Below, piece after piece: positions 14,817-40,722 of a stretch of DNA of 64,000 bases. Numbering within the stretch: position 1 is the stretch's first letter; each line of letters starts with the position of its first letter. The stretch is from Alphaproteobacteria bacterium (GTDB lineage Bacteria; Pseudomonadota; Alphaproteobacteria; VGEJ01). The notes beneath the pieces are model-generated. The model was not told the DNA's origin and made no database searches. It saw only the letters and a list, made by a program, of their open reading frames with translations. A program made the translations under genes and the position numbers. The DNA lies in NCBI GenBank assembly GCA_965226045.1, contig CBDDBU010000021.1:1-64000 (forward strand), in the 5' to 3' direction.

Positions 14817-15686
14817 CTACCTGCCGATATCGACCAGGTCGCCGTAGGTCTCGGGGCGACGGTCGCGGTAGAACTGCCATAGGTCGCGGACCTCGCGCAC
14901 CTGGTCGAGGTCGATGTCGGATACCACCAGCTCGTCGTCGGTCTCGCTCGCCTGGGCGATGATCTGGCCGCGCGGGTCGACCACGTAGGACGAGCCGTAG
15001 AAGCGCCCGACGTTCCATGGCGCCTCCTCGCCGACCCGGTTGATGGCGCCGATGAAGACGCCGTTGGCCACCGCTGCCGCCGGCTGCTCCAACTCCCACA
15101 GGTATTGGCTCAAACCCGCCACGGTGGCCGAGGGGTTGACAATGTACTCGGCGCCGCGGAGCGCGAGCGCCCGCCATCCTTCGGGAAAGTGGCGGTCGTA
15201 GCAGATGTAGACGCCGAGCTTGCAATAGGCGGTCTCGAACACCGGCCAGCCGCTCGCGCCAGGCTTGAAGAAGAACTTCTCGTAGAAGCCGGAGACCTGG
15301 GGGATGTGGGTCTTGCGATACTTGCCGAGGTAGCTGCCATCAGCGTCGATCACGGCTGCGGTGTTGTAGTAGACCCCGGTCATCTCCTCCTCGTAGACCG
15401 GCGCCACGATCACCATGTCGTGGCGCTTGGCGAGTTCGCGCATGTGGCTCACGGTCGGCCCGTCGGGCACCTTCTCGGCGGCGGCGTACCACTTCCGGTC
15501 CTGGCTCGGCGGGAAATAGGGCTGGGTGAAGACCTCTTGGAGGGAGAGTATGCGTACCCCCTGGGCTGCCGCCTTGGCGATGAAGGGCTCGTGCGCGGCG
15601 ATCATCCGGTCGCCGATAGCCTGCGGGCTGTCGCCGGTGTCGCCCTTAAGCGACATCTGAATCAGGCCGACCTTGACGATGCTCAT
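14817..15686 (-). CDS. Beta-ureidopropionase / N-carbamoyl-amino-acid amidohydrolase (CN-hydrolase family)
   Basis: 289 aa. Nitrilase-superfamily catalytic context (E, K, C in GVYICYDRHFPE). Genomic context with preTA and dihydropyrimidinase. Confidence 0.75.
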   Translation of the reverse strand: MSIVKVGLIQMSLKGDTGDSPQAIGDRMIAAHEPFIAKAAAQGVRILSLQEVFTQPYFPPSQDRKWYAAAEKVPDGPTVSHMRELAKRHDMVIVAPVYEEEMTGVYYNTAAVIDADGSYLGKYRKTHIPQVSGFYEKFFFKPGASGWPVFETAYCKLGVYICYDRHFPEGWRALALRGAEYIVNPSATVAGLSQYLWELEQPAAAVANGVFIGAINRVGEEAPWNVGRFYGSSYVVDPRGQIIAQASETDDELVVSDIDLDQVREVRDLWQFYRDRRPETYGDLVDIGR

Positions 15687-15888
15687 ATGGCCCCCTCGGG
15701 CTCGCGACCCTGGCTGCCCTCGTTCGACGCATGAACTTCATTCCATGGTCCACCGAAACGCCGAGCCAGGCAAGCGCGCCCGAGGGCCTCCTGCGGTGGG
15801 ACTTGATGGGGCGGGCTTGATGGGGGCGGACGGCCCTCGTAGTGTCATTTGAGCACATGAACGCGGGGAGGCGCGGCGGAGGTCCGAC

Positions 15889-17256
15889 ATGGTGGACAGT
15901 CCCGACATCGCATCGGCGCGGCGCAATCAGGCCGACTACGGAACGGCGTTCGCCGACTCGAAGCCACCGCTCGACCGCCCGCGCGCGCTGGTCGACGCGG
16001 CGCGCTGCTACTTCTGTTTCGACGCACCTTGCGTCGAGGCCTGCCCCACCGGCATCGACGTGCCGAGCTTCATTCGCAAGATCTCGACCGACAACGTGCG
16101 CGGCGCGGCGCTCGACATTCTCGAGCCGAATATCTTTGGCGGCGCGTGCGCGCGGGTGTGCCCGACCGAGGCGCTGTGCGAGGAAGCCTGCGTGCGCACG
16201 GCACAGGAAGGAAAGCCGGTGCGCATCGGCCTGTTGCAGCGCTACGCGACCGATTGGTTGCTGGCCAGTGGCGAGCAGCCCTTCTCGCGCGCCGTCGCTA
16301 GCGGCAAGCGCGTGGCGGTCGTTGGCGCCGGCCCGGCGGGTTTGGCGGCCGCCCACCGCCTGGCACGCCTCGGCCACGCCATCACGGTGTTCGAGGCGAG
16401 AGCGAAGCCCGGCGGACTTAACGAATACGGCATCGCCGCCTATAAGGTACCGAACAATTTCGCGCACCTGGAGACGGACTTCATCCTCGGTATCGGCGGC
16501 ATCGACGTCCGGTACGGCAAGGCGCTCGGGCGAGACGTAGCGCTCGGCGGCCTGCGGGCCGAATTCGACGCGGTTTTTATCGCCACCGGCCAGGCCGGCG
16601 TTCGCGCCATCGAGACCGAGGGTGCCGCGCTCGACGGCGTGCGCTCGGCGGTCTGTTTCATCGCCGAACTGCGGCAAGCCGAGGATGTGAGCCGACTGCC
16701 GGTGGGGCGGCGCATCGTCGTCATCGGCGGCGGCAACACGGCTATCGACATTGCCGCTCAGACCCGCCGCCTCGGGGCGGAGGACGTGACCATCGTCTAC
16801 CGGCGCGGGCCCGAGGCGATGGGCGCGACCCGCCACGAGCAGGAATTCGCCCAGACCGACGGGGTGCGGATCAAGCACTGGGCGCGCCCCGGCCGTCTGA
16901 TCGGCGCGGGCGGTCACGTTATCTCAGCCGAGTTCGAACGCACCCAAGAGACCGACGGCGGGAGGCTTACCGGCACTGGTGAGACGTTCGCGTTGCCTGC
17001 TGATATGGTCTTCACGGCGATCGGGCAGGCGTTCGTTATCGATCCGGTTTCAGGGGATGGTGAGGCACTGGACATCGTCGATGGCCGCATCGCGGTGAGC
17101 GGCGACGGCGCAACCTCGCTCAGCGGCGTCTACGCCGGCGGGGATTGCGTCGCCGGCGAGGACTTGACGGTCCAGGCTGCCGAGGATGGCAAGCGCGCCG
17201 GCCTCGCGATCGATCGCTATCTCAGCACTGCCGTGCAAGGAGAAGACGATGGCTGA
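15889..17256 (+). CDS. preT: NAD-dependent dihydropyrimidine dehydrogenase subunit PreT (GltD-like, FAD/NAD binding plus Fe-S)
   Basis: 455 aa. CxxCxxxCP ferredoxin motifs plus [14 protein letters not shown] dinucleotide fold. Overlaps preA start by 8 nt. Confidence 0.85.
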   Translation: MVDSPDIASARRNQADYGTAFADSKPPLDRPRALVDAARCYFCFDAPCVEACPTGIDVPSFIRKISTDNVRGAALDILEPNIFGGACARVCPTEALCEEACVRTAQEGKPVRIGLLQRYATDWLLASGEQPFSRAVASGKRVAVVGAGPAGLAAAHRLARLGHAITVFEARAKPGGLNEYGIAAYKVPNNFAHLETDFILGIGGIDVRYGKALGRDVALGGLRAEFDAVFIATGQAGVRAIETEGAALDGVRSAVCFIAELRQAEDVSRLPVGRRIVVIGGGNTAIDIAAQTRRLGAEDVTIVYRRGPEAMGATRHEQEFAQTDGVRIKHWARPGRLIGAGGHVISAEFERTQETDGGRLTGTGETFALPADMVFTAIGQAFVIDPVSGDGEALDIVDGRIAVSGDGATSLSGVYAGGDCVAGEDLTVQAAEDGKRAGLAIDRYLSTAVQGEDDG

Positions 17257-18520
17257 TCTCAGCGCTAACCTGGCCGGCGTCAAGTCGCCGAACCCGTTCT
17301 GGCTCGCGTCCGGACCGCCGGCCGACAAGGCCTACAACGTCGCCCGGGCCTTCGAGGCGGGCTGGGGTGGCGTGGTCTGGAAAACCTTGGGCGATCCCAT
17401 CGTCAATACTGCGTCGCGCTATGGCGCCGCCGCAAGCAACGGTTCGCGAGTCGCGGGGTTCACAAACATCGAGCTCATCACCGATCGCGCGCTCGACGTC
17501 AATCTGCGCGAGATCACGGAGATCAAGCGCGACTGGCCCGACCGCGCCGTCGTCGTGTCGGCGATGGTGCCCTGCACCGAGCCCGAGTGGGAGGTGATGG
17601 TCAAGCGGATCGAGGAGACGGGAGCCGATGGCGTCGAGCTCAATTTCGGCTGTCCGCACGGCATGTCGGAACGCGGCATGGGGGCTGCCGTAGGTCAGGT
17701 GCCCGATTATGTCGAGATGGTGACGGCCTGGGCCAAGGCCCACACCAGCCTGCCGGTGATCGTCAAGCTGACGCCCAATGTGACGAGCATCCTGGCGACG
17801 GCCAGGGCGGCGCGAAACGGGGGCGCCGACTCGGTATCGCTCATCAACACCGTGGCGTCCATCATCGGCGTCGATCTCGATACCATGTCGCCGCTGCCGA
17901 GCGTCGACGGCAAGGGCAGCCACGGTGGCTATTGCGGCCCCGCGGTGCGGCCGATCGCGCTGCGCATGGTCGGCGACATCGTCCGCGAGCCCGACCTGGC
18001 CGATCTGCCGATCTCCGGCATCGGCGGCATCGAGACCTGGCGCGAGGCGGCCGAGTTCATCGCCCTGGGGTGCGGCTCGGTACAGGTCTGCACGGCCGCC
18101 ATGCACTACGGCTTCAAGATCGTGGACGACATGATCGACGGGCTCGGCAATTGGATGGACGAGAAGGGCTACGCGCGCCTCGACGATTTCCGCGCCGCGG
18201 CGGTCAGCAACTACGTCAGTTGGGAAAACCTCGACCTCAACTTCGAACTCCTCGCCCACATCGACCAGGACCTCTGCATCAGGTGCGGGCTCTGCCATAT
18301 CGCCTGCGAGGACACCGCCCATCAGGCGATCCGCGCGCGTCGCGACAACGGTGACCGCCGCTATGAGGTGATCGACGCCGAGTGCGTCGGCTGCAATCTC
18401 TGCGCGCTGGTCTGTCCGGTCGAGGGCTGCGTGACCATGCGGCCAGTGGACAACGGCAAGCCCTACATGTCCTGGGCAGAGCATCCGCGCAATCCGGCCA
18501 ACGCGGCCAGCACGGAGTGA
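17249..18520 (+). CDS. preA: Dihydropyrimidine dehydrogenase subunit PreA (DHOD-like TIM barrel plus C-terminal 2x[4Fe-4S])
   Basis: Start set at MADLSANLAG. DHOD/DHPD family motifs and C-terminal CIRCGLCHIAC ... CVGCNLCALVCP. Confidence 0.85.
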   Translation: MADLSANLAGVKSPNPFWLASGPPADKAYNVARAFEAGWGGVVWKTLGDPIVNTASRYGAAASNGSRVAGFTNIELITDRALDVNLREITEIKRDWPDRAVVVSAMVPCTEPEWEVMVKRIEETGADGVELNFGCPHGMSERGMGAAVGQVPDYVEMVTAWAKAHTSLPVIVKLTPNVTSILATARAARNGGADSVSLINTVASIIGVDLDTMSPLPSVDGKGSHGGYCGPAVRPIALRMVGDIVREPDLADLPISGIGGIETWREAAEFIALGCGSVQVCTAAMHYGFKIVDDMIDGLGNWMDEKGYARLDDFRAAAVSNYVSWENLDLNFELLAHIDQDLCIRCGLCHIACEDTAHQAIRARRDNGDRRYEVIDAECVGCNLCALVCPVEGCVTMRPVDNGKPYMSWAEHPRNPANAASTE

Positions 18521-19704
18521 GCCTGCCGCTTGCTGGCCTCAAGCTAGTGGCGATCGAGCGCTTTGGCGCTGGCCCCTATGGCTCGGGGCATTGCGCCGAC
18601 ATGGGCGCCGACGTCATCCGCATCGAACATGCGACTGCCGGCCCCGACGCGGCGCGGGTCATGGGCCCGTACCTCCTGGGCGCGGACGATTCGCAGTTCT
18701 TCCAGGCCTTCAACCGCAACAAGCGCTCGCTGTCGCTCGATCTCAAGCATCTGCGCGGTCGCGAAGTGCTGGAGCGCCTGGTCGCGACGGCCGATGGCCT
18801 GATCAACAACCTGCGCGGCGATCAGCCAGACAAGCTCGGCCTGACTTACGACCGGCTCAAGGGGCCCAACCCGCGCATCGTCTGTGCCCATATCTCGGGG
18901 TACGGTCGCGACGGCCCACGCAAGAGCTGGCCCGGCTACGACTACTTGATGCAGGCGGAGGCCGGCTTCCTGTCGCTGACCGGCGAGCCCGATGGCGCGC
19001 CCGCCCGGTTCGGCCTGTCGATGGTCGACTACATGACCGGGATGACGGCGGCGTTCGCCTTGCTGGCCGGCATCATGGCGGCGCGGCAGAGTGGCGAGGG
19101 CCGCGATGTCGACGTCTCGCTCTATGACGTCGCTATGCACCAGCTATCCTATCCGGGGGTGTGGTACTTGAACGAAGGGTTGGTGACCGCGCGTGTCGCG
19201 CGTTCCGGTCACCCTTATGTGGCGCCCTCCCAGCTCTGCCGCACCGCCGATGGCTGGATCTTCATCATGGCCCAGACCCAGAAGTTCTGGGCTCTTCTGT
19301 GCGACCGGATCGGGTGGCCGGAACTCACCGACGATCCACGCTTCCGGAGCTATGAGGATCGACACGAGAACCGCGACGTCCTGACCGAGGTGCTCGACGA
19401 GATCCTGACCCGGCGGACGACGGCCGAATGGATCGCGGTCTTCGCCGGCGTCCTGCCCTGCGCGCCGGTCAACGAGATCGCCCAGGCCTTGGACAACCCG
19501 TACTTTCGCCAGCGCGGTGGGGTGCGGACCGTCGCCCATCCCGACCGGCCCGACCTTAAGCTGTTGGCCAGCCCGATCCGCCTCGACGAGCCGATCCCCG
19601 ACCGACCCGGCCCCAAGCTCGGGGCCGACACCGACGCCATTCTCGCCGAACTCGGCTACGACGACGAGGAGATCGATGCGCTCCGACAAGCCGGCGCCGT
19701 CTAG
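18517..19704 (+). CDS. Family III CoA-transferase (CaiB/BaiF family)
   Basis: Probable GTG start overlapping the preA stop (GTGA). N-terminus LAGLKLVAIERFGAGPYGSGHCADMGADVIRIE matches the CaiB-family Rossmann region. Confidence 0.8.
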   Translation: MSLPLAGLKLVAIERFGAGPYGSGHCADMGADVIRIEHATAGPDAARVMGPYLLGADDSQFFQAFNRNKRSLSLDLKHLRGREVLERLVATADGLINNLRGDQPDKLGLTYDRLKGPNPRIVCAHISGYGRDGPRKSWPGYDYLMQAEAGFLSLTGEPDGAPARFGLSMVDYMTGMTAAFALLAGIMAARQSGEGRDVDVSLYDVAMHQLSYPGVWYLNEGLVTARVARSGHPYVAPSQLCRTADGWIFIMAQTQKFWALLCDRIGWPELTDDPRFRSYEDRHENRDVLTEVLDEILTRRTTAEWIAVFAGVLPCAPVNEIAQALDNPYFRQRGGVRTVAHPDRPDLKLLASPIRLDEPIPDRPGPKLGADTDAILAELGYDDEEIDALRQAGAV

Positions 19705-19860: not shown

Positions 19861-21021
19861 ATGAAGCTAGAGGGAGTCCGTGTTCTCGACCTGTCGCTGT
19901 TTTTGCCCGGCCCGCTGCTGACCCAGATGATGGCTGACCACGGCGCCGAGGTGATCAAGCTCGAACCACCTGGCGCCGGCGAGCCGAGCCGCGCGATCGA
20001 CCGCCAGCGCGACGGCGTCTCGGTGTTTTTCGCGAATACTCACCGGGGCAAGAAATCGATCCAACTCGACCTCAAGACCGACCAAGGCCGCGAGATCGCG
20101 CTCCGGCTGGCCGCACGCGCCGATGTGATGATCGAGGGCTTTCGCCCCGGCGTCGTCGACCGCCTCGGGATCGGCTACGCTCAAGTGAGCCGGCGGTCGC
20201 CGCGTCTCGTTTACTGCTCGATCTCCGCCTTCGGCCAGGACGGCCCGTATGCGCGCCGGCCCGCCCACGATCTCGCCACCGAGGCGCTGGCGGGCATCCT
20301 GAGCATTACCTTGGGCGGCGATGGACAGCCGGCCATGCCGGGCATCGCCGCCGCCGACATCCTGTCATCGACGATGGCGCTCTCGGCGGTCTTGATGGCG
20401 CTGCTGCGCCGCGAAACGACCGGCCTGGGCGACTACATCGACATGGCCATGATGGACGCCCTGATGGCGGCGGTGCCCAATAACATGGGCCCGGTGCTGG
20501 CGGACAAGCGCGCCCCGGTCGTCGAGCACGAGCGGCCGTGGGGCGGCAACGCCATGTACCGGATCTACGCGACCAAGGACGGCCGCCACGTGGTGTTAGG
20601 CGGCGCGGAGATGCATTTCGCCCGCAACGTGCTGGAGGCGCTGGGCCGCCCCGATCTTCTCGCACTGTGCGAGCCGCCGCCGGGCCCACACCAAGACCCG
20701 GTCAAGCACTTCCTAGCGGCAACCTTCCGCACCCGGACCCAGGCCGAATGGGTCGAATTCTTCGCGGCGGTCGAGTGCCCCGTCGCCCCCGTCAAGACCA
20801 TGCGCGAGGCCGCCGACGATCCCCAGGTCCGCGCGCGGCGCATGATCGTCGAGGACGAGCGCGGCTGGGAACACGTCGGAACACCGCTAAAGTTCCAAGA
20901 CGAGCCCGGCCAGCCCAATTTCACATTCCCGAGGTTGGGCCAGCACACCGAGGAGATCGTTCACGAACTCGACTTCAACGACGCCGAGATCGCCGCGATG
21001 CGGGAACGCGGCGTGTTTTAG
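19861..21021 (+). CDS. Family III CoA-transferase (CaiB/BaiF family), second paralog
   Basis: 386 aa. MKLEGVRVLDLSLFLPGPLLTQMMADHGAEVIKLEPPG is the canonical CaiB-family N-terminus. Confidence 0.85.
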   Translation: MKLEGVRVLDLSLFLPGPLLTQMMADHGAEVIKLEPPGAGEPSRAIDRQRDGVSVFFANTHRGKKSIQLDLKTDQGREIALRLAARADVMIEGFRPGVVDRLGIGYAQVSRRSPRLVYCSISAFGQDGPYARRPAHDLATEALAGILSITLGGDGQPAMPGIAAADILSSTMALSAVLMALLRRETTGLGDYIDMAMMDALMAAVPNNMGPVLADKRAPVVEHERPWGGNAMYRIYATKDGRHVVLGGAEMHFARNVLEALGRPDLLALCEPPPGPHQDPVKHFLAATFRTRTQAEWVEFFAAVECPVAPVKTMREAADDPQVRARRMIVEDERGWEHVGTPLKFQDEPGQPNFTFPRLGQHTEEIVHELDFNDAEIAAMRERGVF

Positions 21022-21175: not shown

Positions 21176-22057
21176 ATGACACAACGACACCAACGCCGAG
21201 CCGAGCTGGCGGCGCGCATCCGCGCTAAGGACTTCGTGACCGCGCCCGGTATTTTCGACCTGATCTCGGCCCGTATCGCCGATGGCTACGACTTCCCCGC
21301 GCTCTATATGACCGGATACGGTACGGTGGCGTCGCATTTGGGCCTGCCCGATGCGGGTCTTGCCACCTATAGCGATATGGTCGGCCGCGTCGCCCGCATC
21401 TGCGAGGTCGTGGACACGCCGCTGATCGCGGATGGTGACACCGGCTATGGCGGTCTCCTCAACGTGGAACACACCGTGCGCGGTTACGAGCTGGCGGGCG
21501 CCGCAGCCATCCAGCTCGAGGACCAGCAGTTTCCGAAGAAATGCGGCCACACGCCCGACCGGCCCGTGGTTCCGCTTGCCGACATGGTGGCGAAGATCCG
21601 CGTCGCGGGGGCGGCGCGCGACTCGAGCGACTTTCTGATCATCGCGCGGACCGATGCGCGCACCAACCACGGCCTCGACGAGGCCCTGCGACGGGCTGAG
21701 GCGTTCGCCGAGGCGGGTGCCGACGTGCTGTTCGTCGAGGCCCCGGAATCGATCGACGAGATGCGCGAGATTGGCCGGCGCTTCGATCTACCCCTGCTCG
21801 TCAACATGGTTGATGGTGGAAAGACGCCGGTGCTGAGCCGGGCGGACCTCGTCGACATCGGCTATGCGCTGGCGATCTTTCCGGCGACCGGCTTCCTCGC
21901 CATGGGCGCGGCGCTGCGCGGGGTCTACGGCCATCTCGCCAACCAGGGATCGAGCGCCAACCTAGAGACGCCGCTCGACGACTTCGGCGAGTTCAGCAAG
22001 CTGATGGGGTTCGAGGCGGTGTGGGCGTTTGAGCGCCGCTGGGCCGACGAGAGCTGA
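21176..22057 (+). CDS. Isocitrate lyase / PEP mutase family protein (methylisocitrate-lyase / carboxyvinyl-carboxyphosphonate phosphorylmutase-like)
   Basis: 293 aa. Family motifs PGIFDLISAR ... YMTGYG ... DGDTGYGG ... KKCGH. Confidence 0.75.
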   Translation: MTQRHQRRAELAARIRAKDFVTAPGIFDLISARIADGYDFPALYMTGYGTVASHLGLPDAGLATYSDMVGRVARICEVVDTPLIADGDTGYGGLLNVEHTVRGYELAGAAAIQLEDQQFPKKCGHTPDRPVVPLADMVAKIRVAGAARDSSDFLIIARTDARTNHGLDEALRRAEAFAEAGADVLFVEAPESIDEMREIGRRFDLPLLVNMVDGGKTPVLSRADLVDIGYALAIFPATGFLAMGAALRGVYGHLANQGSSANLETPLDDFGEFSKLMGFEAVWAFERRWADES

Positions 22058-22072: not shown

Positions 22073-22714
22073 TCAGGCCGCCGCCTTCTGCAGCCGTTGA
22101 AGGACGTGGGCGCTGGTCGCGACGTCGGCGTATTTCTGCTCTATGTCGAAGAGATTGGCCTCGTGCGGGCCAAGGGCGCGGTCGCCAACGCAATCGCTGA
22201 CCACGATGGTGCGGAAGTTATGACTGCATGAATCGACCACGGACGCGCGAACACAACCCGAGGTGGTGCAGCCGGTCACGAGCAGCGTATCTACCCCACG
22301 CATCACCAGCCACGGCGCAAGGCCGGTGCCGAAGAACGCTGAAGGCTCGGTCTTGCGAACGATGAACTCGCCGGGCAGCGGCTTCAGCTGGGGCACGATC
22401 TGGCCCGCCTCGGCGCTCTCAGTCAGCGTTTTCAGCGCCGGCACCTTGAGGCAGAACACGCCCGCATCCGACCCGTCATCGGCGTAGACGACCCGGGTGA
22501 AGGCGACCGGGATGCACGCCGCCCGCGCGCCATCGAGCAAGATACGCGTCCGTTTGATCGCAGCGTCGATGTTACCACCGCCGAACTGGCCCGCGTCGTT
22601 GAACCCGTTGGTGAAGTCGACAATCAGCAACGCCGGAGCCCGACCGAACCCGACCTCGTTGGCGAAGCCTTGTCGGCGATAGATGTCTAGTTCGCTCAAC
22701 CGACCCTCCTCCAT
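22073..22714 (-). CDS. Isochorismatase-family cysteine hydrolase (RutB / CSHase-like)
   Basis: Start set at MEEGRLSELDIY by alignment to the paralog at 39483. Motifs LLIVDFTNGF and VTGCTTSGCVRAS (catalytic Cys). Confidence 0.7.
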   Translation of the reverse strand: MEEGRLSELDIYRRQGFANEVGFGRAPALLIVDFTNGFNDAGQFGGGNIDAAIKRTRILLDGARAACIPVAFTRVVYADDGSDAGVFCLKVPALKTLTESAEAGQIVPQLKPLPGEFIVRKTEPSAFFGTGLAPWLVMRGVDTLLVTGCTTSGCVRASVVDSCSHNFRTIVVSDCVGDRALGPHEANLFDIEQKYADVATSAHVLQRLQKAAA

Positions 22715-24525: not shown

Positions 24526-24532
24526 GCGGAAG

Positions 24533-25948: not shown

Positions 25949-26096
25949 ATCATCCTCCCCGCTTTGTTGCGTTCCCCGGCTCGGAATCCTAAGCTACTAC
26001 TAGAAGCAAATGTTTGTAAGAAATACCTAGCGAATTCCGTGCGATAGCGCCCCAGCCGATTCTCTCGGGACGGCGCACGGGCCTGTATTCGCGACG

Positions 26097-33143: not shown

Positions 33144-35444
33144 TCAAACCCCCAGCCACGCCCCGTTCGCCGATCGACGCTCCCCGAAATCGAAGACCGG
33201 GAGGTCCTTGCGCTCGCGCTTTAGGTTCTTGCGTCGTTCTTGGGTCGCCCTCTGATCAACCTGCACAGGCGTGCCGACCACGACCACGCCATAGGCGTTG
33301 CTTGCCACGTCCGCTGTCATCAGCTTCCGCGCCACATCGTTGCGCACCCGCGACGGGTCGCGCTCCAGGGCGTCGCCCCAGCCCCCGCCGCCGGCGGTGC
33401 GAAAGACGATACGATCGCCGCGCCCGACTTTGACGTTGTCGATCTTCGAGGGCAGGGACTCGCGACCACCGTCGGCTCGCTCCAGCCATTTTGATGAGCA
33501 CGCGCCGGGCCTGCCGCCGAGAATCCCCCAGGGCTGGGTGAGGTGCCGATCATCGTGGATCGATATCTCGCCCGCCTCGAGAAGCAAGTAGACCTTCTCC
33601 ACGCCATTGCCCCCGCGATGCTTGCCGGCGCCACCGGTGTCGGCGACGCTGCCATAGCGCTCGATGATCATCGGATAGTAGCTCTCAAGGTACTCGGTGG
33701 GGATGTTCTCGAACAGCGGCCACCACGAGTGACCATCCAGGCCATCGCCGATCGGGCGACCGGGAATGCCGCCATAGAGAATCTCCATCAACTGGAAGCC
33801 GCGCCCATCGCGGTCCACGCCCGAGTAGAGGAAATGCGGGCTTGAGCCATAACCTGCGGCCGTCGCCATCTCGGGCGCATTGCGGCTAAGCGCGCCGCCC
33901 AGCACATCGAACTGCCGCGACAGGGCGTGGGTGCGACCGCCGAGCGCCGCCGGGAAGGTCGGGTGGACCAGCGAACCCTCCGGCATGGTGACGTGGATGA
34001 GGTCGTAGAAGCCATCGTTGAAGAGAATCTGGGGGTCGAACACCATGATCATGTAGACCCCGATGAACATCTTGAACATGCCCTCGTGGAGATAGAAGTT
34101 GATCGGCCCCGGCGATTGCGGCGCGGTGCCGGTCCAATCGAAGTAGGCGTGCTCGCCCTCGCGCCACACGGTGAGCTTCATCTTGAAGGGACCATTGCCG
34201 AGGCCGTCGTCGTCGACATAGTCCTCGAACGACTGCGGCTCCTCCGGCAAGTTCTGGACGATGAGTTGGCGCATGGCGCGGTTGGTCCGTTCCAGCAAGG
34301 CCTCGCAGGCCTGCCTGTAGGTCTCCTTGCCGAACCGCTCGCAAATCTCGATTACCCGTTTTTCGCCGGCCCGGCTGCCGGCGATGATTGCCATCAGGTC
34401 GCTGTAGTTCATTTCGGGCGTGCGCGTGTTGTTCATGATCAAGTCGATCGCCGACTTGTTGAGTTCTCCGCGCTCGTAGATCTTGATCGGCGGGATCTTC
34501 AGACCCTCGCCAAAAATCGAGGTAGCGGCGGTCGGCATGCTGCCTGGCACCGGGCCGCCGACATCCATCACGTGGCCGAACATCGAGCTGAAGCCGACCA
34601 TCTCCCCGTCGTGGAAGATCGGCACCAGCACCATCCAGTCATTGATGTGGCTGATCGCCCCGCCGCATTTGTAGGGATCGCTCTGTAGAATTACATCGCC
34701 GGGATAGAGTTCGAAGTTCTGGGCTGCCAGCATCTCCGTGACATAGGAGCCGAACTGGCCGACGATCATCCGGCCCTTGGCGTCGGTGATCATGGGGAAC
34801 TCGTCATGCTGCTCGCGAATGACCGGCGACATGGCCGAGCGAAACAGCACCGCGTCCATCTCGTGGCGGGCGTTGCGCAGCGCGTTCTCGACCAGATCCA
34901 GCGTGATCGTGTCGAGCCGCCCGCGCGACGCGCGCTCCGTGCGCGACGGCTCTGGCAGGGGCGAGGCCGCCCCGCGCCCACCGCTGCTAGACGGCTGAGG
35001 CGGCTCATCTTGTTCGCGGGCCGCCGCCCCGGAGCCGAACAATTCGGCGCAATGCGCCAGCGCGTCGGCGGTCGCGCGGCGCAGCGCCGCACCTTCGTCG
35101 CCGTTGACCCGGGCCGAGCCGAACTGCGATTTCGTCACGCCGTCAACCTCGAGTTTGCAGAGCACGGTGACCATACCGTTCTCGGTCTTACGATTGACCA
35201 CCTCCGAGGACCAGCCGGGGCCGAACCGGGCATTGAGCGACGCCCCCACATCGCCGTCGCGTTCAGCGCTCATGACGTCCACGCTCGCAGACGCCAAGTC
35301 CTCGCGCGTTGCGGGCCGATGAGTGACGCCGAGCAGGCCGAAGTCGCGCTTCTGAGCATCGAGAATCTTGTCGAACTGCTGCTTGTTCGTCTTCATCAGG
35401 TCGTCGAGCGACAGGCTTTGGAAACGCGGGTTCAGGTCCGACAT
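33144..35444 (-). CDS. Hydantoinase B / oxoprolinase-family subunit (HyuB-like) with ~175-aa N-terminal extension carrying Rad52/Sak-like motifs
   Basis: 766 aa. The HyuB core starts near LDTITLDLVENALRNARHEMDAVLFRS, with no in-frame start codon in front of it. The N-terminal extension contains NARFGPGWSSEVV and ALRRATADALAHCAELFG, resembling the Rad52/Sak N-domain motifs (FGY.GW...; EAVSDALKRCAKAFG). Starts 13 nt after the hyuA stop. Confidence 0.75.
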   Translation of the reverse strand: MSDLNPRFQSLSLDDLMKTNKQQFDKILDAQKRDFGLLGVTHRPATREDLASASVDVMSAERDGDVGASLNARFGPGWSSEVVNRKTENGMVTVLCKLEVDGVTKSQFGSARVNGDEGAALRRATADALAHCAELFGSGAAAREQDEPPQPSSSGGRGAASPLPEPSRTERASRGRLDTITLDLVENALRNARHEMDAVLFRSAMSPVIREQHDEFPMITDAKGRMIVGQFGSYVTEMLAAQNFELYPGDVILQSDPYKCGGAISHINDWMVLVPIFHDGEMVGFSSMFGHVMDVGGPVPGSMPTAATSIFGEGLKIPPIKIYERGELNKSAIDLIMNNTRTPEMNYSDLMAIIAGSRAGEKRVIEICERFGKETYRQACEALLERTNRAMRQLIVQNLPEEPQSFEDYVDDDGLGNGPFKMKLTVWREGEHAYFDWTGTAPQSPGPINFYLHEGMFKMFIGVYMIMVFDPQILFNDGFYDLIHVTMPEGSLVHPTFPAALGGRTHALSRQFDVLGGALSRNAPEMATAAGYGSSPHFLYSGVDRDGRGFQLMEILYGGIPGRPIGDGLDGHSWWPLFENIPTEYLESYYPMIIERYGSVADTGGAGKHRGGNGVEKVYLLLEAGEISIHDDRHLTQPWGILGGRPGACSSKWLERADGGRESLPSKIDNVKVGRGDRIVFRTAGGGGWGDALERDPSRVRNDVARKLMTADVASNAYGVVVVGTPVQVDQRATQERRKNLKRERKDLPVFDFGERRSANGAWLGV

Positions 35445-35457: not shown

Positions 35458-37536
35458 TCACGGTCCGCTCGAGCCGCCCGATCGGGCGCCGCCCTGGGGG
35501 TAGATCAAGATGTTCAAGTACTCGTCGACGTCACCCACATGATCGGGATGAATGACGGTTGTCGTATCGTCTTGCAGGATCACCGCTGGGCCGAGCACAC
35601 GGTGGCCCGCGACCAGAAGGGTCCGATCGTAGATATTGGCGGTTAGGAAGTTGCCGTCGAAATAGACGCGATGCTGTTCGACCACGGCGGCGGACGCGTC
35701 CGGGCCGCCCTTCTCGAAGCTCGGGAAGCTAACCTTGGCCACTTGGCCGGTGCCGACCGCCCGCAGGTTAACGAGCTCGACGGGCGCATTCACCTTGAAG
35801 CCATAGAGACGCTCGTGGGCGGCGCCGAAGCGGCTTTCGATATCGCTCAGGCCACCGTTGCCGAGGGCGTCGGGATTGACGTCGAGGGAGAACTCGTAGC
35901 CTTGGCGGAAGTAGCGCACGTCGACTTGATAGTGCAGCTCCTGGCGCCCGTCGTCGATACCTTCTTCCTGCAGCCAAGCCCTCGCATCTCGTCCCAGTTC
36001 CGTCAGAATCTGATTCACCTGGGCCGCCCCGGCGTCCTCGATGTTGCGAATGAAGGTCCGGGCAAACTCGTTCTTGACATCAGAGTAGAGGAAACCGAGC
36101 GCCGACAGCACGCCCGGCGTCGGCGGGATGATGACTGGAAAGCAGTCGGCCAAGCGGCCCACGGCGTTGCCATGCAACGGGCCCGCGCCGCCAAACGCCA
36201 CCAGCACGAAGTCGCGCGGATCGAGCCCCTTTTGCACTGTCACCAGTCGCAAGGCGCCCAACATGTTCTCGTTGACGATGTCGAGAATACCCTGAGCGGC
36301 CGCGTGGACATCCAAACCGAGCGCGTCGCCGATCTTGGCGATGGCGGCCTCGGCCGCGCCGGCGTCGAGGGCCATCTCGCCGCCGAGCAGGCTGGGCGGT
36401 AGGTGGCCCAGCACCACGTTCGCGTCGGTCACCGTCGGCAATTCGCCGCCCCGGCCGTAACACGCCGGCCCCGGCACGGCGCCCGCGCTTTCCGGCCCCA
36501 CGCGCAACGCGCCGGTCATCGGCACATGGGCGATGGAGCCGCCGCCCGCGCCAACGCTGTGCACCTCGACCGAGGGCACCTTGACCGGATAGTAGCCGAG
36601 CGAGGTCTGCCGCGAGATGGTCGGCTTGCCCTCCTGGATCAACGACACGTCGGTGGACGTGCCGCCCATGTCGAAGCCGAGCGCTTGTGGGTATCCCGCC
36701 AGTGAGGCAATAAAAGCGGCGCCCGAAACTCCGCCCGCCGGCCCCGACAGCATAGTGAGTACCGGAAAATCGCTGGCCCTCTGGACGCTCATGAGTCCGC
36801 CGTCGGAGCGCACGATGTTGACGTGGGGAGAGAACTGAATCTCGCGCAATCGGTTCTCGATGCCGTGTAGATACCGGCGCACGCTGGGCCGCACATAGGC
36901 GTTCATCACCGCCACCAGCGTGCGCTCGTATTCGCGGAACTCGGGCAGGATTTCGGAGGACAACGAAACGGTCATGTCGGCGTCGAGCTCGCCCACGAGA
37001 TCCTTCAGCCGCTCTTCGTGGAGCGAATTGGCGTAGGAGTGGAGGAGCGAAACGGTGATCGCCTCGGCCCCCAGGTCGATCAGTTCGCGGATCGCTGCCC
37101 GCGCATGCTCCTCGTCCAGCGGCGTCATGATCTCGCCACGCGCGGTGACGCGCTCGCGAACGCCACGGGTCAACTCCAAGTCGGCCATCAGCTCGGGCTT
37201 GATCATGGTGATCCAGCCCGCCAACGGGCCCGGGGTCTGGGATCGCGCCAGGTGCAGAACTTGTTCGAAATTCTCGGTCACCAGAAGTCCGACCTTCGCG
37301 CCCTTGCCTTCCAAGACGATATTGGTCGAGACCGTTGTGCCGTGGAGAAGCGCCCGAATGTCCGCCGGCGCGACGCCCGATTCGGCGACGATCTTGTTGA
37401 TGCCGGTAAGTATACCGACCGATTGGTCGTGGGGGGTTGACGGCGTCTTCAGCAGGCGCAGGGCGCCGGTATTCTCGTCGAACAGCAGCAAGTCCGTAAA
37501 CGTGCCACCGACATCGACGCCGAGGCGGCGGCTCAT
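35458..37536 (-). CDS. Hydantoinase A / oxoprolinase-family subunit (HyuA-like; acetone-carboxylase beta-like)
   Basis: Start set at MSRRLGVDVGGTFTD (ASKHA-fold ATPase N-terminus). About 692 aa. Confidence 0.85.
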   Translation of the reverse strand: MSRRLGVDVGGTFTDLLLFDENTGALRLLKTPSTPHDQSVGILTGINKIVAESGVAPADIRALLHGTTVSTNIVLEGKGAKVGLLVTENFEQVLHLARSQTPGPLAGWITMIKPELMADLELTRGVRERVTARGEIMTPLDEEHARAAIRELIDLGAEAITVSLLHSYANSLHEERLKDLVGELDADMTVSLSSEILPEFREYERTLVAVMNAYVRPSVRRYLHGIENRLREIQFSPHVNIVRSDGGLMSVQRASDFPVLTMLSGPAGGVSGAAFIASLAGYPQALGFDMGGTSTDVSLIQEGKPTISRQTSLGYYPVKVPSVEVHSVGAGGGSIAHVPMTGALRVGPESAGAVPGPACYGRGGELPTVTDANVVLGHLPPSLLGGEMALDAGAAEAAIAKIGDALGLDVHAAAQGILDIVNENMLGALRLVTVQKGLDPRDFVLVAFGGAGPLHGNAVGRLADCFPVIIPPTPGVLSALGFLYSDVKNEFARTFIRNIEDAGAAQVNQILTELGRDARAWLQEEGIDDGRQELHYQVDVRYFRQGYEFSLDVNPDALGNGGLSDIESRFGAAHERLYGFKVNAPVELVNLRAVGTGQVAKVSFPSFEKGGPDASAAVVEQHRVYFDGNFLTANIYDRTLLVAGHRVLGPAVILQDDTTTVIHPDHVGDVDEYLNILIYPQGGARSGGSSGP

Positions 37537-37671
37537 GACCCCTTTAGTCCCCCGACCCAGCGGTGCGCACCTCGCTCGCGGCGCTCGGAACTCCCGCCTA
37601 AACTGGTTGTCGTCATCCCTGGCTTTGGTATATTGCCCAATGCCTCGCCGCTGCCCATACCCGCTCTGATC

Positions 37672-38199
37672 ATGGCACAAGAAACCGTTGGCCCGCGCAA
37701 ACCCCGATTCTTCATCGTTGGCGTGGGGATCATTATACTATTGGTGTTTCTCTATTTTTACCGACCATTTGAAGATTACTTTACACAAGGCATTCGGGAC
37801 GTTGATTCATCCAATATAGTTTTCTGGTCTGCTTCTCTGGTGGGCATACTCGCCTACATGATCTCTCATTGGCGGTCCTTCCGCCACAACATCTTTCGCG
37901 ATGTCACCAACCTCGACATCGAGACGCTGGTCTTCGACACGCTACAGATCGCCATCCTGGTCGCCGTCATCTTCTGCGCCGGCGCGATCCTGCAGGAAAT
38001 CGAGATGCTGGCCGAGCATCTGATCGAACGCGGAACCATCGTAGGGCCGGTGTTCGGCGGCGGACTGCTCTCGATCATACTTCTGTTTATTCTTGCGGTC
38101 GCGTTCTATCTCCTGCATCGCATGGTGCGCGGCTTTCGGGTGGGCTGGCGTCCCGGCCGGCCGCGGCCGAGATCGCGGTCGACCGCCCGCCTGCCCTAG
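37672..38199 (+). CDS. Small membrane protein, hypothetical (paralog of 24061..24525)
   Basis: Start set at [19 protein letters not shown] / FLFYYEPFEELF and HWRSFR / HWRAYR are conserved between the two paralogs. Confidence 0.5.
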
Positions 38200-39302
38200 C
38201 CGGCGGCGGCGGTCGACCGCGCGGGACCGCCGACGAACGGTTGGCGCTTGATGAAGTCGTCGGCGATCTCGTCGAAGGTGTGCCAGCGCACGCCGGAGTG
38301 GCTCGAGATGTACTCGATCATCCGCTCGATCATCAGCAACACCTGGGGCCGGCCCGAGATGTCGGGGTGGATGGTCAGGGTGAACACCGCGTAGTCCATC
38401 TCGCGGTAGACCCAGTCGAACTGATCGCGCCACCACTCCTCGATATCGCGCGGGTTCACCCAGCCGTGGCTGTTGGGCACGTTCTTCATGAACATCAGCG
38501 GCGGCAGGTCGTCGAGGTACCAGCTGGCCGGGATCTGCACGATCGGCACGGTGGTGCCGAGCTCCATCGGCTTCATCCAGGTGTGGGCCGGCTTGCCGTA
38601 GTCGATCAGCGTCCATGACTCGCCGACCCGGGTCCAGAACGGTGTGAAGTCGTTGTGCATCTGGCTGTGGTCGTACTTGATGCCGCGCTCGAGCAAGAGC
38701 TGTGGCGTCGCCAGGCTCATCTCCCACCACGGCGCGACGTTGCCGCTGGGCGTGCGGCCCGAGATTTTCTCGATCAGCTCGATGCCCTTGTCGAGGATCA
38801 CAGCCTCCTGGTCGGGCGTCATCTGCACCGGGTTCTCGTGGGTGTAGCCGTGCAGGCCAATCTCGTGCCCCTCGTCGGCCACCCGCGTCATGATGTCGGG
38901 CCAGGTCTCGATAGTATGACCGGGGATGAACCAACTGGTGCGCAGGTCCACGCGCTTCAGCATATCCAACATGCGCGGCGTGCCGATCTCGGCCGAAAAC
39001 ACGCCGCGGCCGATGTCGCTGGGCGAATCGCCACCGCCATAGGAGCCGATCTGCCCGGCCACCGCATCAACGTCGATGCCGATGGCGCACAGAATGTCCT
39101 TCTTGCCGCCGCCTGACGCCGAGCGTGCCGTCGCTCCCGCACTGGTCCCGGGCAGGCTCGATCCCGCGCCGGTTTCCCGCGCCGCGGCCGCCGACGCACC
39201 GATCGGACGCGGACTGTAGCGCGGCCCGATGCCGCCGCCGGGCGCCACGGCATCGGATCGCCCCGGATGTCCACGGAACCCAGAATCAGAACGATCGCTC
39301 AT
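38196..39302 (-). CDS. Polysaccharide-deacetylase-family (NodB-fold) amidohydrolase
   Basis: 368 aa. Deacetylase-type DVD and His motifs. The N-terminal ~60 aa is low-complexity, so the true start is uncertain. Confidence 0.65.
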
Positions 39303-39482
39303 GACGATACCCTTCCCTGCCGGTCAATTCATTTTCAGGCAAGCCGCACTCGGCTCGATCTCTCGTCTTCTGATACAACCCACTCCACGGCCGATCAACT
39401 GGGCCGCGTTGATCGGCCAGGGACCAGGCGCTATCGTGACGGGGCGCTATCGTCGTCAATGAGAGCTGGCTCGGAGGCCGAG

Positions 39483-40214
39483 ATGAGCGATTGGCGACAA
39501 GACACACGCGAGGACTACCAGCGCAAGGGCCTTGGCGTGCGCGCGGGCTATGGGGCCAAACCAGTCCTCTTGCTGGTCGATTTCATCAATGGATTCACCG
39601 ACCCCAGCACGCCGCTGGGCGGCGATCTCACGGGCCAGATCGCGGCGACCAAGAGGCTGCTGGCCGAATGCCGCGCCCAGGGCCAAACCATCGTCTACAC
39701 GACCATCGCGTACGCGCCGGATCTGCGCGACGCCGGGATGTGGATCAAGAAGATTCCTTCTCTGGAGATTCTGACAAAAGGATCACCGATGGTCGAGATC
39801 GATGAGCGCGTTCGTCCCCGCCGCGGCGAACGCGTGGTCGAAAAGAAGTTCGCGAGCGCGTTCTTTGGTACCTATCTCGACGCCTATTTGCGCGGTCTTG
39901 GCATCGACACCGTCATCATGACGGGCTGCACCACCAGCGGCTGCATCCGCGCCTCGGCGGTGGACTCGATCCAGTACGGCTACTACACGGTCGTGGTCGG
40001 AGACGCTGTCGGCGACAGAGCGAAGGGCCCGCACGACGCGAATCTGTTCGATATCGAGGCCAAATACGGCGATGTGGTCTCCAGCCACGAGGTGCTAACG
40101 TACCTCCGATCGCTCGAAGGCACGGACGGTCTTGCTGGCCAGGCCAACGTTGATTTCCGGCGCTGGTGGGGTGCGGAATCGCCGCCGGCCGAGGATCGGC
40201 GCCGTGGGGCATAA
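39483..40214 (+). CDS. Isochorismatase-family cysteine hydrolase, second paralog
   Basis: Start at MSDWRQD. Motifs LLLVDFINGF and MTGCTTSGCIRAS, collinear with 22073..22714. Confidence 0.7.
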   Translation: MSDWRQDTREDYQRKGLGVRAGYGAKPVLLLVDFINGFTDPSTPLGGDLTGQIAATKRLLAECRAQGQTIVYTTIAYAPDLRDAGMWIKKIPSLEILTKGSPMVEIDERVRPRRGERVVEKKFASAFFGTYLDAYLRGLGIDTVIMTGCTTSGCIRASAVDSIQYGYYTVVVGDAVGDRAKGPHDANLFDIEAKYGDVVSSHEVLTYLRSLEGTDGLAGQANVDFRRWWGAESPPAEDRRRGA

Positions 40215-40263
40215 CGACGGAGCGCCCAACGAGGCCGGGAGGCTCTCGGCGCGATTCGACGAG

Positions 40264-40722
40264 ATGTTGGAGACCAGTCGGCGCGACCTGGACGCGCTCT
40301 ATCGCGACGAAAACGGCAAGCCGTCGAGGCTCGTGCTATCTCGCGCGGCTCGATCGGCCCATACATCATCCTCGGAGCGGGCCGTCAGCGGCTTCGATCC
40401 AAGATCAACCCCGACCGCACGCGTCCTCGACGATTGGTTCGGCGGTCGCTGGCGCTTTGAGATCACCGACCGCCGCCACGATGGCGACGAGGTGGTGGTG
40501 AGCGGGCGCGTCGTGGTCGAGAATCAAGGCATCGAAATGTCGGGCACCGGACGCGCCGCCGTTGCCACCGGAAACGCGGCGATCGAAGGAACGACGGCGG
40601 GTGTCGTCTTCAGGGTCAAGCCCACGCACGCTATGGCGCGCGACAGCGTTGGCGGCCCGGAAGACTCCGCTTTCCGCCAGGCCGCCGCCGTGGCGCTCGC
40701 GCGTTGCGCGCAACTCCCGTAG
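40264..40722 (+). CDS. Hypothetical protein, paralogous to the N-terminal extension of the HyuB-like protein (weak Rad52-like motifs)
   Basis: Start at MLETSRR. WFGGRWRFEI ... EDSAFRQAAAVALARCAQL parallels the HyuB N-terminal FGPGWSSEV ... EGAALRRATADALAHCAEL. Strong GC3 bias. Confidence 0.4.
   Translation: MLETSRRDLDALYRDENGKPSRLVLSRAARSAHTSSSERAVSGFDPRSTPTARVLDDWFGGRWRFEITDRRHDGDEVVVSGRVVVENQGIEMSGTGRAAVATGNAAIEGTTAGVVFRVKPTHAMARDSVGGPEDSAFRQAAAVALARCAQLP

Follow-up and report, generated by a model that had tools for sequence, protein, structure and literature searches.

A candidate cyclic-amide catabolic supercluster with an ATP-dependent hydantoinase possibly tethered to a giant flotillin-type protein in an alphaproteobacterium

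Introduction

Two-subunit HyuA/HyuB enzymes have been described as the N-methylhydantoinase that accompanies N-carbamoylsarcosine amidase in the creatinine pathway and as caprolactamase. These are the closest described counterparts of the gene cluster studied here, which occupies positions 14817-40722 of a 64,000-nucleotide (nt) stretch of alphaproteobacterial DNA (contig CBDDBU010000021.1; the whole stretch is called the window below) and which encodes a predicted ATP-dependent HyuA/HyuB pair (HyuAB) beside a giant flotillin-type SPFH protein. The cluster shares with these systems both subunits with all their Pfam domains, the closest solved structures and, as in the creatinine pathway, an adjoining isochorismatase-type amidase close to N-carbamoylsarcosine amidase. 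It differs from them in a 177-amino-acid (aa) N-terminal extension of HyuB and in the association with a putative membrane scaffold, which is new; in addition, no equivalog cut-off is reached, and creatinine deaminase and sarcosine oxidase were not found with Pfam in the window. Cyclic-imide degradation, as represented by the Pseudomonas putida YZ-26 imidase and by HxnM/HxnN of Aspergillus nidulans (PMC9304392), likewise has a NodB-fold enzyme and a divergently paired amidase, although the amidase is here of the isochorismatase type and not of the amidase-signature type; the CoA-transferases and the lyase of the cluster could take the dicarboxylate product, and a CobW-type GTPase and a 109-aa protein are encoded beside NodB in most relatives but not in the window genome. 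As for reductive pyrimidine catabolism, candidate genes for all four activities are present, and PreA and dihydropyrimidinase pass their equivalog cut-offs; however, these genes are spread over three transcription units, CoA-transferase and lyase genes stand within the preTA operon, and PreTA and the CN-hydrolase are dispensable across relatives.

Bacterial flotillins (YqiK, FloT; the SPFH2 group with the giant SPFH2b proteins) are widespread, and clear client-specific functions for them are scarce. In this regard, Hinderhofer et al. drew attention in 2009 to giant SPFH2 proteins of 800-1000 aa, to which they assigned no function (PMC2636767). These giant proteins are not known to have been explained since. 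The SPFH protein of the cluster shares with bacterial flotillins the Band_7 domain and, as predicted from sequence, the N-terminal anchor and a long, expanded helical region, but its gene lies inside a catabolic operon, between hyuB and an ABC ATPase gene, it has no NfeD-type operon partner, and it shows a strict linkage to an enzyme with a dedicated N-terminal helix. The second unusual component is a domain related to the Rad52/Rad22 annealing proteins (PF04098; RAD52, Mgm101, phage Sak). In the domain on HyuB, their N-terminal part (the first ~50 columns of the alignment) and all that follows the core are absent. The domain is also slightly acidic, its context is a metabolic enzyme as fusion partner or a docking-type helix in front of it, and no recombination genes lie nearby.

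A first-pass annotation had described the locus as a pyrimidine/hydantoin catabolic island without a regulator, in which a flotillin, paired small membrane proteins and Rad52-like domains were oddities with no known role. Each enzyme family of the cluster is known; what is new is the organisation, that is a Rad52 domain on a catabolic enzyme, a candidate docking helix, a giant flotillin and paralogous transmembrane (TM) proteins. Our literature search found no paper that combines a hydantoinase with a flotillin or Rad52, and the top-ranked papers for hydantoinase/oxoprolinase together with SPFH, Band 7 or stomatin mention neither enzyme. Database names of the core proteins are only "N-methylhydantoinase B", "YqiK" or "hypothetical". 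The cluster would represent a widespread, unannotated route for the use of cyclic amide and ureide nitrogen in uncultured soil and marine Proteobacteria. It also provides a flotillin and its putative client enzyme as a genetically defined pair, in which the enzyme's candidate docking peptide occurs in all cases with the flotillin and in none without it, so that the scaffold role of a flotillin and the recruitment of its clients become directly testable, and it places a DNA-recombination fold in a catabolic enzyme, which is unexpected for both fields.

Results and Discussion

Gene content and proposed function

Genes were called over the window by third-position GC bias, because it is high in GC, and every sizeable open reading frame (ORF) was scanned with Pfam and NCBIfam. 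All the genes that the first-pass annotation had listed were recovered at 14817-40722. They form about ten transcription units of alternating orientation with five divergent promoter regions, and all of them are intact, with lengths that agree with those of their orthologues. We read this locus as a supercluster for the catabolism of cyclic amides, ureides and imides in which the ATP-dependent hydantoinase would be tethered to a flotillin scaffold, and we give this reading a probability of about 0.5. Judged from the encoded families, the cluster probably serves to take up and degrade small cyclic amides, of a hydantoin, dihydropyrimidine or cyclic-imide type, which would supply nitrogen and carbon. 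Ring opening is predicted for three of the enzymes, namely dihydropyrimidinase, the NodB-type cyclic imidase and the ATP-dependent HyuAB, and ring reduction for PreTA; two isochorismatase-type enzymes and one CN-hydrolase would act as amide or carbamoyl hydrolases, and two CoA-transferases together with a lyase of the isocitrate lyase (ICL) type could process the dicarboxylate skeleton.

Conservation of the HyuAB-SPFH core

To compare the locus with its relatives, loci around HyuB relatives were collected from species-representative genomes, all of them metagenome-assembled genomes (MAGs), the best 80 of ~550 genome hits being used; every window protein was scored against these 80 HyuB loci, and the ORFs of the loci were clustered into families. 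The gene order of the cluster is kept in three related lineages whose HyuB is 82-91% identical, and the cluster is therefore not a chance mosaic of scattered genes. In the lineage with 91% HyuB identity (L001-L003, L087, L088) the order is PreT, PreA, the two CoA-transferases, three extra genes, ICL-type lyase, isochorismatase, the polytopic membrane protein Mem348 and a small TM protein, followed by dihydropyrimidinase, binding protein, two permeases, ABC ATPase, SPFH protein, HyuB, HyuA, a small TM protein, NodB, isochorismatase and the Rad52-like ORF. The lineage with 82% identity (L050/L089) has the same order without PreTA and carries genes for a reductase of the old yellow enzyme (OYE) type and an amidase further upstream. 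Furthermore, a distant 7.3-Mb genome (L091) keeps isochorismatase, the Mem protein, the small TM protein, dihydropyrimidinase, binding protein, permeases, ATPase and SPFH protein. The cluster is chromosomal, syntenic and 70-95% conserved over many MAGs, and a metagenome contig of 718 kb in ENA (L085) is near-identical to the window. A megablast search of PLSDB with the whole cluster returned short gene-level matches only and no syntenic relative, and the exact HyuB sequence of the window had no record in the look-up.

Among the relatives, 47 proteobacterial loci from uncultured Alpha- and Gammaproteobacteria, with a HyuB core 75-90% identical to that of the window, are of the SPFH type. Their core consists of HyuB (46 loci), the SPFH protein (46), the ABC ATPase (44), HyuA (43) and the small TM protein (42), with NodB (36), the CobW-type GTPase (33) and the 109-aa protein (23) as companions; isochorismatase is clustered in 24 of them and the Rad52-like ORF in ~20, or ~30 by tblastn. 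Another 34 loci (HyuB core 66-69% identical), which belong to Binatia, Acidobacteriota, Chloroflexota and others, lack the SPFH protein, the ATPase, the small TM protein, NodB and the N-terminal extension; isochorismatase, CoA-transferases and an ICL-like gene sometimes remain there. What the first-pass annotation had set apart as oddities, namely the flotillin, the paired membrane proteins and the domains resembling Rad52, is in the comparative data the conserved heart of the system.

The N-terminal helix of HyuB tracks the flotillin

HyuB (766 aa; 33144-35444, minus strand) comprises a hydantoinase_B core (residues 178-766; PF02538, 499 bits, starting at residue 178) and the 177-aa extension. 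It is encoded downstream of HyuA (692 aa; 35458-37536, minus strand; ATG start with AAAGGGG upstream), which has the Hydant_A_N, Hydantoinase_A and Hydant_A_C domains. The extension falls in alignments into three parts, namely a conserved N-helix motif, a conserved domain and a variable linker rich in Pro, Ala and Arg. The motif (LDDLMKTNKQQFDKIL, 35361-35408, minus strand; consensus (S/T)LD(D/E)LLKANKxQFDKIF) is predicted to form an amphipathic helix on the evidence of the alignments and of an AlphaFold2 model with a helix at residues 13-35. In a six-frame translation of the window the motif occurs in only two places, the N-termini of HyuB and of the product of 40204-40722 (plus strand, 172 aa, GTG start), which is a free-standing paralogue of the HyuB extension made up of an N-helix (40255-40302; consensus LSxxFDxMLxxxKxxFDxLY), a linker and a Rad52-like domain with an inserted hairpin. 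Paralogue and extension were aligned by hhalign over 127 columns that include both helix and domain (99.6%, E 6e-25).

Helix and linker are present in all HyuB proteins of SPFH-type loci: a regular expression detects 41, and those remaining proteins whose N-terminus is complete show variants of the motif such as SLDEMLRSSREQFDRLF. Most HyuB proteins of these loci also bear the Rad52-derived domain. No N-extension at all is seen in the 34 HyuB orthologues from SPFH-less loci. Additionally, HyuB proteins of Gammaproteobacteria (L032, L040, L049 and others) have helix and linker without the Rad52 domain, and the SPFH protein is still present. The HyuB of locus L092 (7711-9948, 745 aa) has the Rad52-like domain at its extreme N-terminus, without the helix; there, genes for a Mem348-family protein (Mem352) and a small TM protein directly follow hyuB (10001-11805), and no SPFH gene lies within 10 kb. 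Helix, Rad52 domain and SPFH protein are separable across loci, and therefore the N-helix is the element that tracks the flotillin, this being a correlation among related genomes.

A Rad52-derived domain on a catabolic enzyme

The Rad52-like domains reported in the first-pass annotation proved to be real, both at the N-terminus of HyuB (about residues 64-137; 35034-35255, minus strand) and in ORF 40204-40722. The consensus of the HyuB domain reads ...LNxRFGxxWSSEVVEHKxERGxVTVLCKLxVDGxSKMQFGSAR.NGDEGAALRRATxxALxxCAxxFG. A search of 1.8 billion representative sequences with the extension profile returned HyuB fragments, small paralogues and proteins of ~190-320 aa, and 8 of 10 tested proteins of the last group pass the gathering score of Pfam Rad52_Rad22 (PF04098) with 35-62 bits. 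Together with the hhalign comparison of the HyuB extension with 24 Rad52/22 proteins (99.8%, E 1.8e-27, 41% identity over 82 columns), these matches establish, as a statement on sequence, that the extension is homologous to the Rad52/22 family. One HyuB orthologue (P0027) has a precomputed PF04098 hit, and the domain has the Rad52 core fold, its fold neighbours being all nucleic-acid binders. The match starts at column 53 of the template, and the conserved "KQR...YVE" segment that precedes this point has no counterpart in the HyuB extension, so that the HyuB domain, whose net charge is -2, has no equivalent of the hairpin region with which the annealing proteins begin.

The giant SPFH protein as a putative scaffold

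The SPFH protein (805 aa; 30647-33064, minus strand; PF01145, Band_7, 47.9 bits vs a cut-off of 23.6) has a predicted N-terminal anchor, an SPFH domain, a region of ~440 aa rich in E, A, R, K, Q and L, which make up 68% of residues 201-640, and a conserved C-terminal region (residues 620-720). Its single hydrophobic segment (residues 6-24) is followed by YKR, and because K/R stand directly after this segment the positive-inside rule suggests that the protein is anchored N-out/C-in, with its bulk in the cytoplasm. Residues 26-371 are 34-37% identical to proteins named "flotillin family protein" of Escherichia coli, Salmonella and Burkholderia. The search found 1823 homologues, the best 120 of which are 800-1023 aa long, and the protein is strongly conserved along its whole length, including the block at residues 620-720. 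Its orthologues bear the name YqiK in JGI. The FloT equivalog model (NF058507) gives it 23 bits vs a cut-off of 700, so it is not FloT itself, and no sequence match was found in the PDB.

According to these observations, the SPFH protein may form a membrane scaffold or cage with its bulk in the cytoplasm, and the N-terminal helix would dock HyuAB and the small paralogue onto it, beside the importer. The Rad52-derived domain, having lost its DNA-binding hairpin, could make the enzyme oligomerise in rings, and these rings may also include the small paralogue. In this arrangement an imported, membrane-permeant ring compound would be opened with ATP before it can escape. Targeting peptides of bacterial microcompartments and encapsulins, as well as the HflK/C-FtsH cage, offer an analogy, and no more than an analogy: the likeness lies in a short terminal amphipathic helix, a flexible and poorly conserved linker and a cargo enzyme encoded beside the scaffold gene, but the scaffold would here be an SPFH membrane protein instead of a protein shell, in an arrangement predicted from the genes. 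A bolder form of the proposal, which we put forward as tentative and hold to be rather doubtful, is that a cage or platform of the giant flotillin on the inner membrane, facing the cytoplasm, forms an enzyme compartment, in which HyuAB is loaded by the targeting helix and arrayed on domesticated Rad52 rings mixed with the paralogue, atop the ABC importer and the small TM proteins. If true, bacterial microcompartments and encapsulins would have a counterpart built on a flotillin, and the Rad52 recombinase fold would for the first time be seen exapted for metabolism. In a 2025 preprint (PMC12407830), another SPFH protein, stomatin, is reported to encapsulate membrane transporters.

Predicted ring-opening and amide-hydrolysing enzymes

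The HyuB core is closest among solved structures to N-methylhydantoinase (7hk5, 259 bits) and caprolactamase (6yra, 201 bits), and carboxylases score lower. The best NCBIfam matches of HyuA and HyuB are caprolactamase subunits (242 and 527 vs a cut-off of 1000), and no equivalog is reached. HyuB has more than 120 clusters of orthologues of ~770 aa, which JGI labels "N-methylhydantoinase B". Additionally, 19 loci of a Xanthobacteraceae type (L007-L016 type) carry a second, divergent HyuA/HyuB pair upstream of the Rad52-like ORF and ~10 kb upstream of HyuB.

Isochorismatase-family amidohydrolase 2 (243 aa; 39483-40214, plus strand) is close to N-carbamoylsarcosine amidase. It scores 233 bits to N-carbamoylsarcosine amidohydrolase 26st, with identical residues, as judged by eye, at over half of the aligned positions, and the isochorismatase fold with aligned Asp, Lys and Cys (the Cys of TTSGC) is consistent with assignment to this group. 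Its scores to two further groups of isochorismatase-family hydrolases, 4l07 and 3ot4/3uao, taken here as NicF-type maleamate amidases, are 163-167 bits. Isochorismatase 1 (213 aa; 22073-22714, minus strand; PF00857, 128 bits) is kept at the same position in L087, L089 and L091. Both isochorismatase-type enzymes are candidates for the half-amidase of a cyclic-imide route, which would hydrolyse the monoamide formed by ring opening.

The NodB-fold amidohydrolase (368 aa; 38196-39302, minus strand; PF01522) scores 431 bits (E 3e-128) over 288 residues to HP0310 of Helicobacter pylori (3qbu), and this places it in the HpPgdA/CIH/HxnM clade as a predicted imidase. HP0310 is the structural representative of this clade, to which the imidase of P. 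putida and the cyclic imidase HxnM of A. nidulans, an enzyme that opens the ring of 3-hydroxypiperidine-2,6-dione, also belong (PMC9304392). In most relatives (L004-L045) genes for a CobW/COG0523-type GTPase and for a 109-aa protein of no family lie between NodB and the small TM gene (e.g. L009:5712-6041 and the next gene), and the window lineage has lost both. The trio of NodB, hypothetical protein and CobW-type GTPase is also found on a plasmid of Shinella sp. HZN7 (L090:12394-14786), together with ABC transporter genes and an amidase and without HyuAB. This association points to a requirement of the imidase-type NodB enzyme for a metallochaperone in most hosts.

Taken together, the homologies point to small cyclic ureides, imides or lactams as substrates and to ammonia and a C4-C6 dicarboxylate as products, and N-methylhydantoin or hydantoin-like ureides would be the best single guess for HyuAB and isochorismatase 2. 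The first-pass annotation had proposed a non-canonical route, either of a carboxylase type or through cyclic amides. The second option agrees with the affiliations of NodB, the isochorismatases and HyuB. The carboxylase option was rejected, as the gamma subunit of acetone/acetophenone carboxylase is not present and carboxylases score under N-methylhydantoinase and caprolactamase as PDB matches of HyuB.

Weighing the proposed scaffold and its alternatives

Several observations weigh against a flotillin-tethered hydantoinase. The N-extension and the Rad52-like ORF of the window gave no Pfam Rad52 hit at E values up to 10, and a PDB profile search with the extension alignment did not find Rad52, its only result being a weak DUF465-like match of the HyuB N-helix to HP1242 (E 0.06). 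Neither a classical NfeD partner nor an NfeD domain in any cluster protein was found with Pfam. The contact between HyuB and the SPFH protein, as well as ring formation by the truncated domain, are what we infer from sequence, and the co-occurrence of helix and SPFH protein is correlative; moreover, as related Proteobacteria supply most of the loci, the counts are inflated by phylogenetic non-independence. Genes for the permeases, the binding protein and dihydropyrimidinase are found no more than 10 kb away from HyuB in about one third of the loci or fewer, so coupling to the importer is not universal. The recurrent Pfam neighbours of SPFH-less HyuAB (SDR, MFS, DUF1329, luciferase-like, methyltransferase, MMPL) give no clue to the substrate. 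Finally, the proposed model does not account for the absence of a regulator.

A first competing account, which we regard as unlikely but as a serious contender, is ordinary utilisation of creatinine/N-methylhydantoin (or hydantoin) by a standard HyuAB and N-carbamoylsarcosine amidase, with the other genes as unrelated neighbours and the flotillin and Rad52 parts as mere decoration. It would be consistent with N-methylhydantoinase being the best solved relative of HyuB, with the similarity of isochorismatase 2 to 26st, with the JGI orthologue name and with the co-occurrence of HyuAB and isochorismatase in SPFH-less loci too. In enzymological terms a standard N-methylhydantoinase, which the first-pass annotation had named as an outcome against its own reading, is plausible, because the best solved relatives of HyuB and isochorismatase 2 make up exactly the enzyme pair of that pathway. 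However, creatininase and sarcosine dehydrogenase are missing from the Pfam results for the window just as creatinine deaminase and sarcosine oxidase are, the caprolactamase models that match HyuA and HyuB best stay far under their cut-offs, and this account leaves unexplained the strict co-occurrence of N-helix and SPFH protein as well as the free-standing paralogue, the NodB/CobW module and the conserved small TM proteins. The island could also be a mosaic, that is plain reductive uracil/thymine catabolism beside unrelated genes placed there by insertion sequences (IS). A complete set of PreT, PreA, dihydropyrimidinase and beta-ureidopropionase-like genes, at least nine transposase ORFs with several IS repeats in the window, and relatives with IS insertions inside the cluster speak for this possibility. 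We nevertheless consider it improbable, given that the order from the CoA-transferases to the Rad52-like ORF is kept in lineages without PreTA and the CN-hydrolase, that no repeat pair brackets the cluster and that all genes are intact and of orthologue length.

The remaining alternatives concern the Rad52-like domain. It may have kept nucleic-acid binding and supply the regulation, HyuB and/or the paralogue being a PutA-like trigger enzyme that binds DNA or mRNA of the cluster without substrate and moves to the flotillin scaffold with it. Such an enzyme would suit a locus that has five divergent promoter regions and about ten transcription units and for which no regulator is found in the 64 kb or in relatives, as well as a domain that is homologous to single-stranded DNA annealing proteins and has only nucleic-acid binders as fold neighbours; but the N-terminal hairpin is missing (match from template column 53), the net charge is negative and no shared operator motif was found among the intergenic regions, and we give this possibility little credit. 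Additionally, the position that we take to be equivalent to Arg156 of human RAD52, in a manual alignment, is mostly acidic or neutral. Phage defence or another non-metabolic system would bring together the SPFH protein, the ABC-type ATPase and the phage-like Rad52 annealing domain, and Rad52/22-family proteins of such a type are typical of phages. The ATPase has weak PADLOC matches to generic ABC-type ATPase models (mad3, AriA), but PADLOC gave nothing for the SPFH protein, HyuA, HyuB, the Rad52-like ORF, the TM proteins or NodB, all the other genes encode catabolic enzymes and the importer, and a chromosomal cluster kept in synteny at 70-95% across many MAGs does not fit such a system. Since PADLOC shows only generic ABC-ATPase similarity, a defence system was rejected, and we hold it to be highly improbable.

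Pyrimidine, CoA-transferase and lyase genes

Within the proposed catabolic supercluster, the first-pass annotation had seen a full reductive pyrimidine set. This stands for PreT, PreA and dihydropyrimidinase, whereas the CN-hydrolase is beta-ureidopropionase-like and stays under equivalog cut-offs. The PreT-like NAD-dependent dihydropyrimidine dehydrogenase subunit (455 aa; 15889-17256, plus strand) has Fer4_20 and Pyr_redox_2 domains, and no PreT equivalog model is among the NCBIfam matches listed for it. Its gene is adjacent to and overlaps that of PreA (423 aa; 17249-18520, plus strand, ATG start), a protein of the DHO_dh plus 4Fe-4S dicluster type that passes NF006183 (692.9 bits vs a cut-off of 335). 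Dihydropyrimidinase/D-hydantoinase (471 aa; 24533-25948, minus strand) passes TIGR02033 (612.4 bits vs 393). The CN-hydrolase (289 aa; 14817-15686, minus strand; PF00795, 215 bits) has eukaryotic beta-ureidopropionases as closest solved relatives (2vhh/8pt4/6ftq, ~194 bits) and N-carbamoylputrescine amidase as best NCBIfam match (242 vs a cut-off of 410), no equivalog cut-off being reached.

The four pyrimidine genes do not travel jointly with the cluster in relatives. An orthologue of the CN-hydrolase adjoins the cluster only in the window genome, and PreTA, which two of the three close lineages encode (found in L087/L088, missing from L089), never lies within 10 kb of HyuB in the 80 other loci. 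The reductive-pyrimidine genes are therefore a peripheral accessory of the window lineage, and the HyuAB-SPFH unit is the core. The earlier view that the cluster does more than plain uracil degradation gains from this, PreTA and the CN-hydrolase being its least conserved parts.

Family III (CaiB) CoA-transferase 1 (395 aa; 18517-19704, plus strand, GTG start; PF02515, 367 bits) has formyl-CoA transferase 10uh and SUGCT 9br7 as closest solved structures, and CoA-transferase 2 (386 aa; 19861-21021, plus strand; PF02515, 355 bits) is kept beside it in L087 and L089. The product of 21176-22057 (293 aa, plus strand; PF13714) belongs to the lyase branch of the ICL/phosphoenolpyruvate (PEP)-mutase superfamily. 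Among solved structures it is closest to the petal death protein 1zlp, to methylisocitrate lyases and to 2,3-dimethylmalate lyase, and it scores under the prpB cut-off.

Importer and membrane proteins

The importer consists of a PotD-like binding protein (26255-27541, plus strand; SBP_bac_8) with a twin-arginine translocation (TAT) signal, two permeases (27723-28703 and 28705-29532, plus strand; BPD_transp_1) and a PotA-like ABC ATPase (361 aa; 29536-30621, minus strand; ABC_tran and TOBE_2, with potA-type NCBIfam matches). Binding protein and permeases are kept in L087, L089 and L091. The ATPase gene is the last of the hyuA-hyuB-SPFH operon and follows the SPFH gene in 44 of the 47 loci. An exact tandem duplication of 137 bp (26097-26233 and 26234-26370) spans the ribosome-binding site and the first ~39 codons of the binding-protein gene, including part of the TAT signal region. 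The duplication is absent from the otherwise ~99.6%-identical contig L085, its second copy keeps the gene intact, and it could be a strain polymorphism or an assembly artefact.

Mem348 (348 aa; 22849-23895, plus strand) is a polytopic membrane protein with ~10 predicted TM segments for which neither Pfam nor NCBIfam gave a family. The paired small membrane proteins of the earlier description are indeed paralogues (33% identity, E 9e-22), each with about four TM segments: copy 1 has 154 aa (24061-24525, plus strand), and copy 2, divergent from hyuA, has 175 aa (37672-38199, plus strand). The gene of copy 2 overlaps the 3' end of the NodB gene by 4 bp and has the same position and orientation in L001-L004 and most loci, and the family is present in 42 of the 47 SPFH-type loci.

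Regulation

The absence of a regulator noted in the first-pass annotation held for the whole window: no scanned ORF has a regulator-type domain, and helix-turn-helix (HTH) domains were found by Pfam only in IS transposases. Syntenic relatives have no regulator beside the cluster either, the only regulator-type genes being an extracytoplasmic function (ECF) sigma/anti-sigma pair ~5 kb outside it in L091. Rfam found no riboswitch or other RNA family in the window, the sigma-54 promoter consensus had 24 matches against 24.9 expected, a sigma-70/terminator scan was not above chance, and the comparison of intergenic regions revealed no operator motif common to them. The spacer between hyuA and the small TM gene is alignable only among close relatives. 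In the divergent spacer between the dihydropyrimidinase and binding-protein genes (25949-26118) we observed short invariant blocks (CTAAG.TA, GAAAT, G.TAGCG and GAC), which are kept across four lineages (with the equivalents in L087, L089 and L091), where the proteins are only ~50% identical, and which do not recur elsewhere in the window; these blocks may be promoter or operator elements.

Mobile elements and flanking regions

The IS load of the window is very high, with at least nine transposase ORFs and two pairs of near-identical IS copies on the left flank (877-2229/4202-5506 and 6778-7863/11196-12420); further IS copies or transposases lie at 41332-42687, 44224-45453, 47433-49653 and 52027-53049. 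In L001 and L002 the cluster is interrupted, between its permease and binding-protein genes, by IS insertions that differ from one relative to the other. A composite transposon was considered and rejected, as the IS repeats stay inside one flank or the other and no pair of them encloses the cluster. Directly to its right, an inverted repeat of 228 bp (96% identical; 40824-41050 and 48854-49081) brackets a mobile segment of ~8 kb with an IS5-type transposase, a D-glutamate-cyclase-like gene, a truncated ABC permease fragment (43867-44148), an IS481/IS3-type transposase and an amidase (NF005565, 668 bits). This segment (40824-49081) looks like a second nitrogen-catabolic cluster broken by IS or like a composite mobile element. 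On the left flank, 8343-10878 lies between IS copies and encodes a small DUF2282 protein, an MbnB/TglH/ChrH-type (DUF692) enzyme (313 bits) and a DoxX protein, possibly a peptide-modification gene set unrelated to the cluster. An HNH endonuclease ORF is found at the start of the window (1-729), and frame-shifted remnants resembling HNH and GIY-YIG/T5orf172 domains lie at 13608-14800, left of the CN-hydrolase gene, the left border of the cluster being a decayed mobile region.

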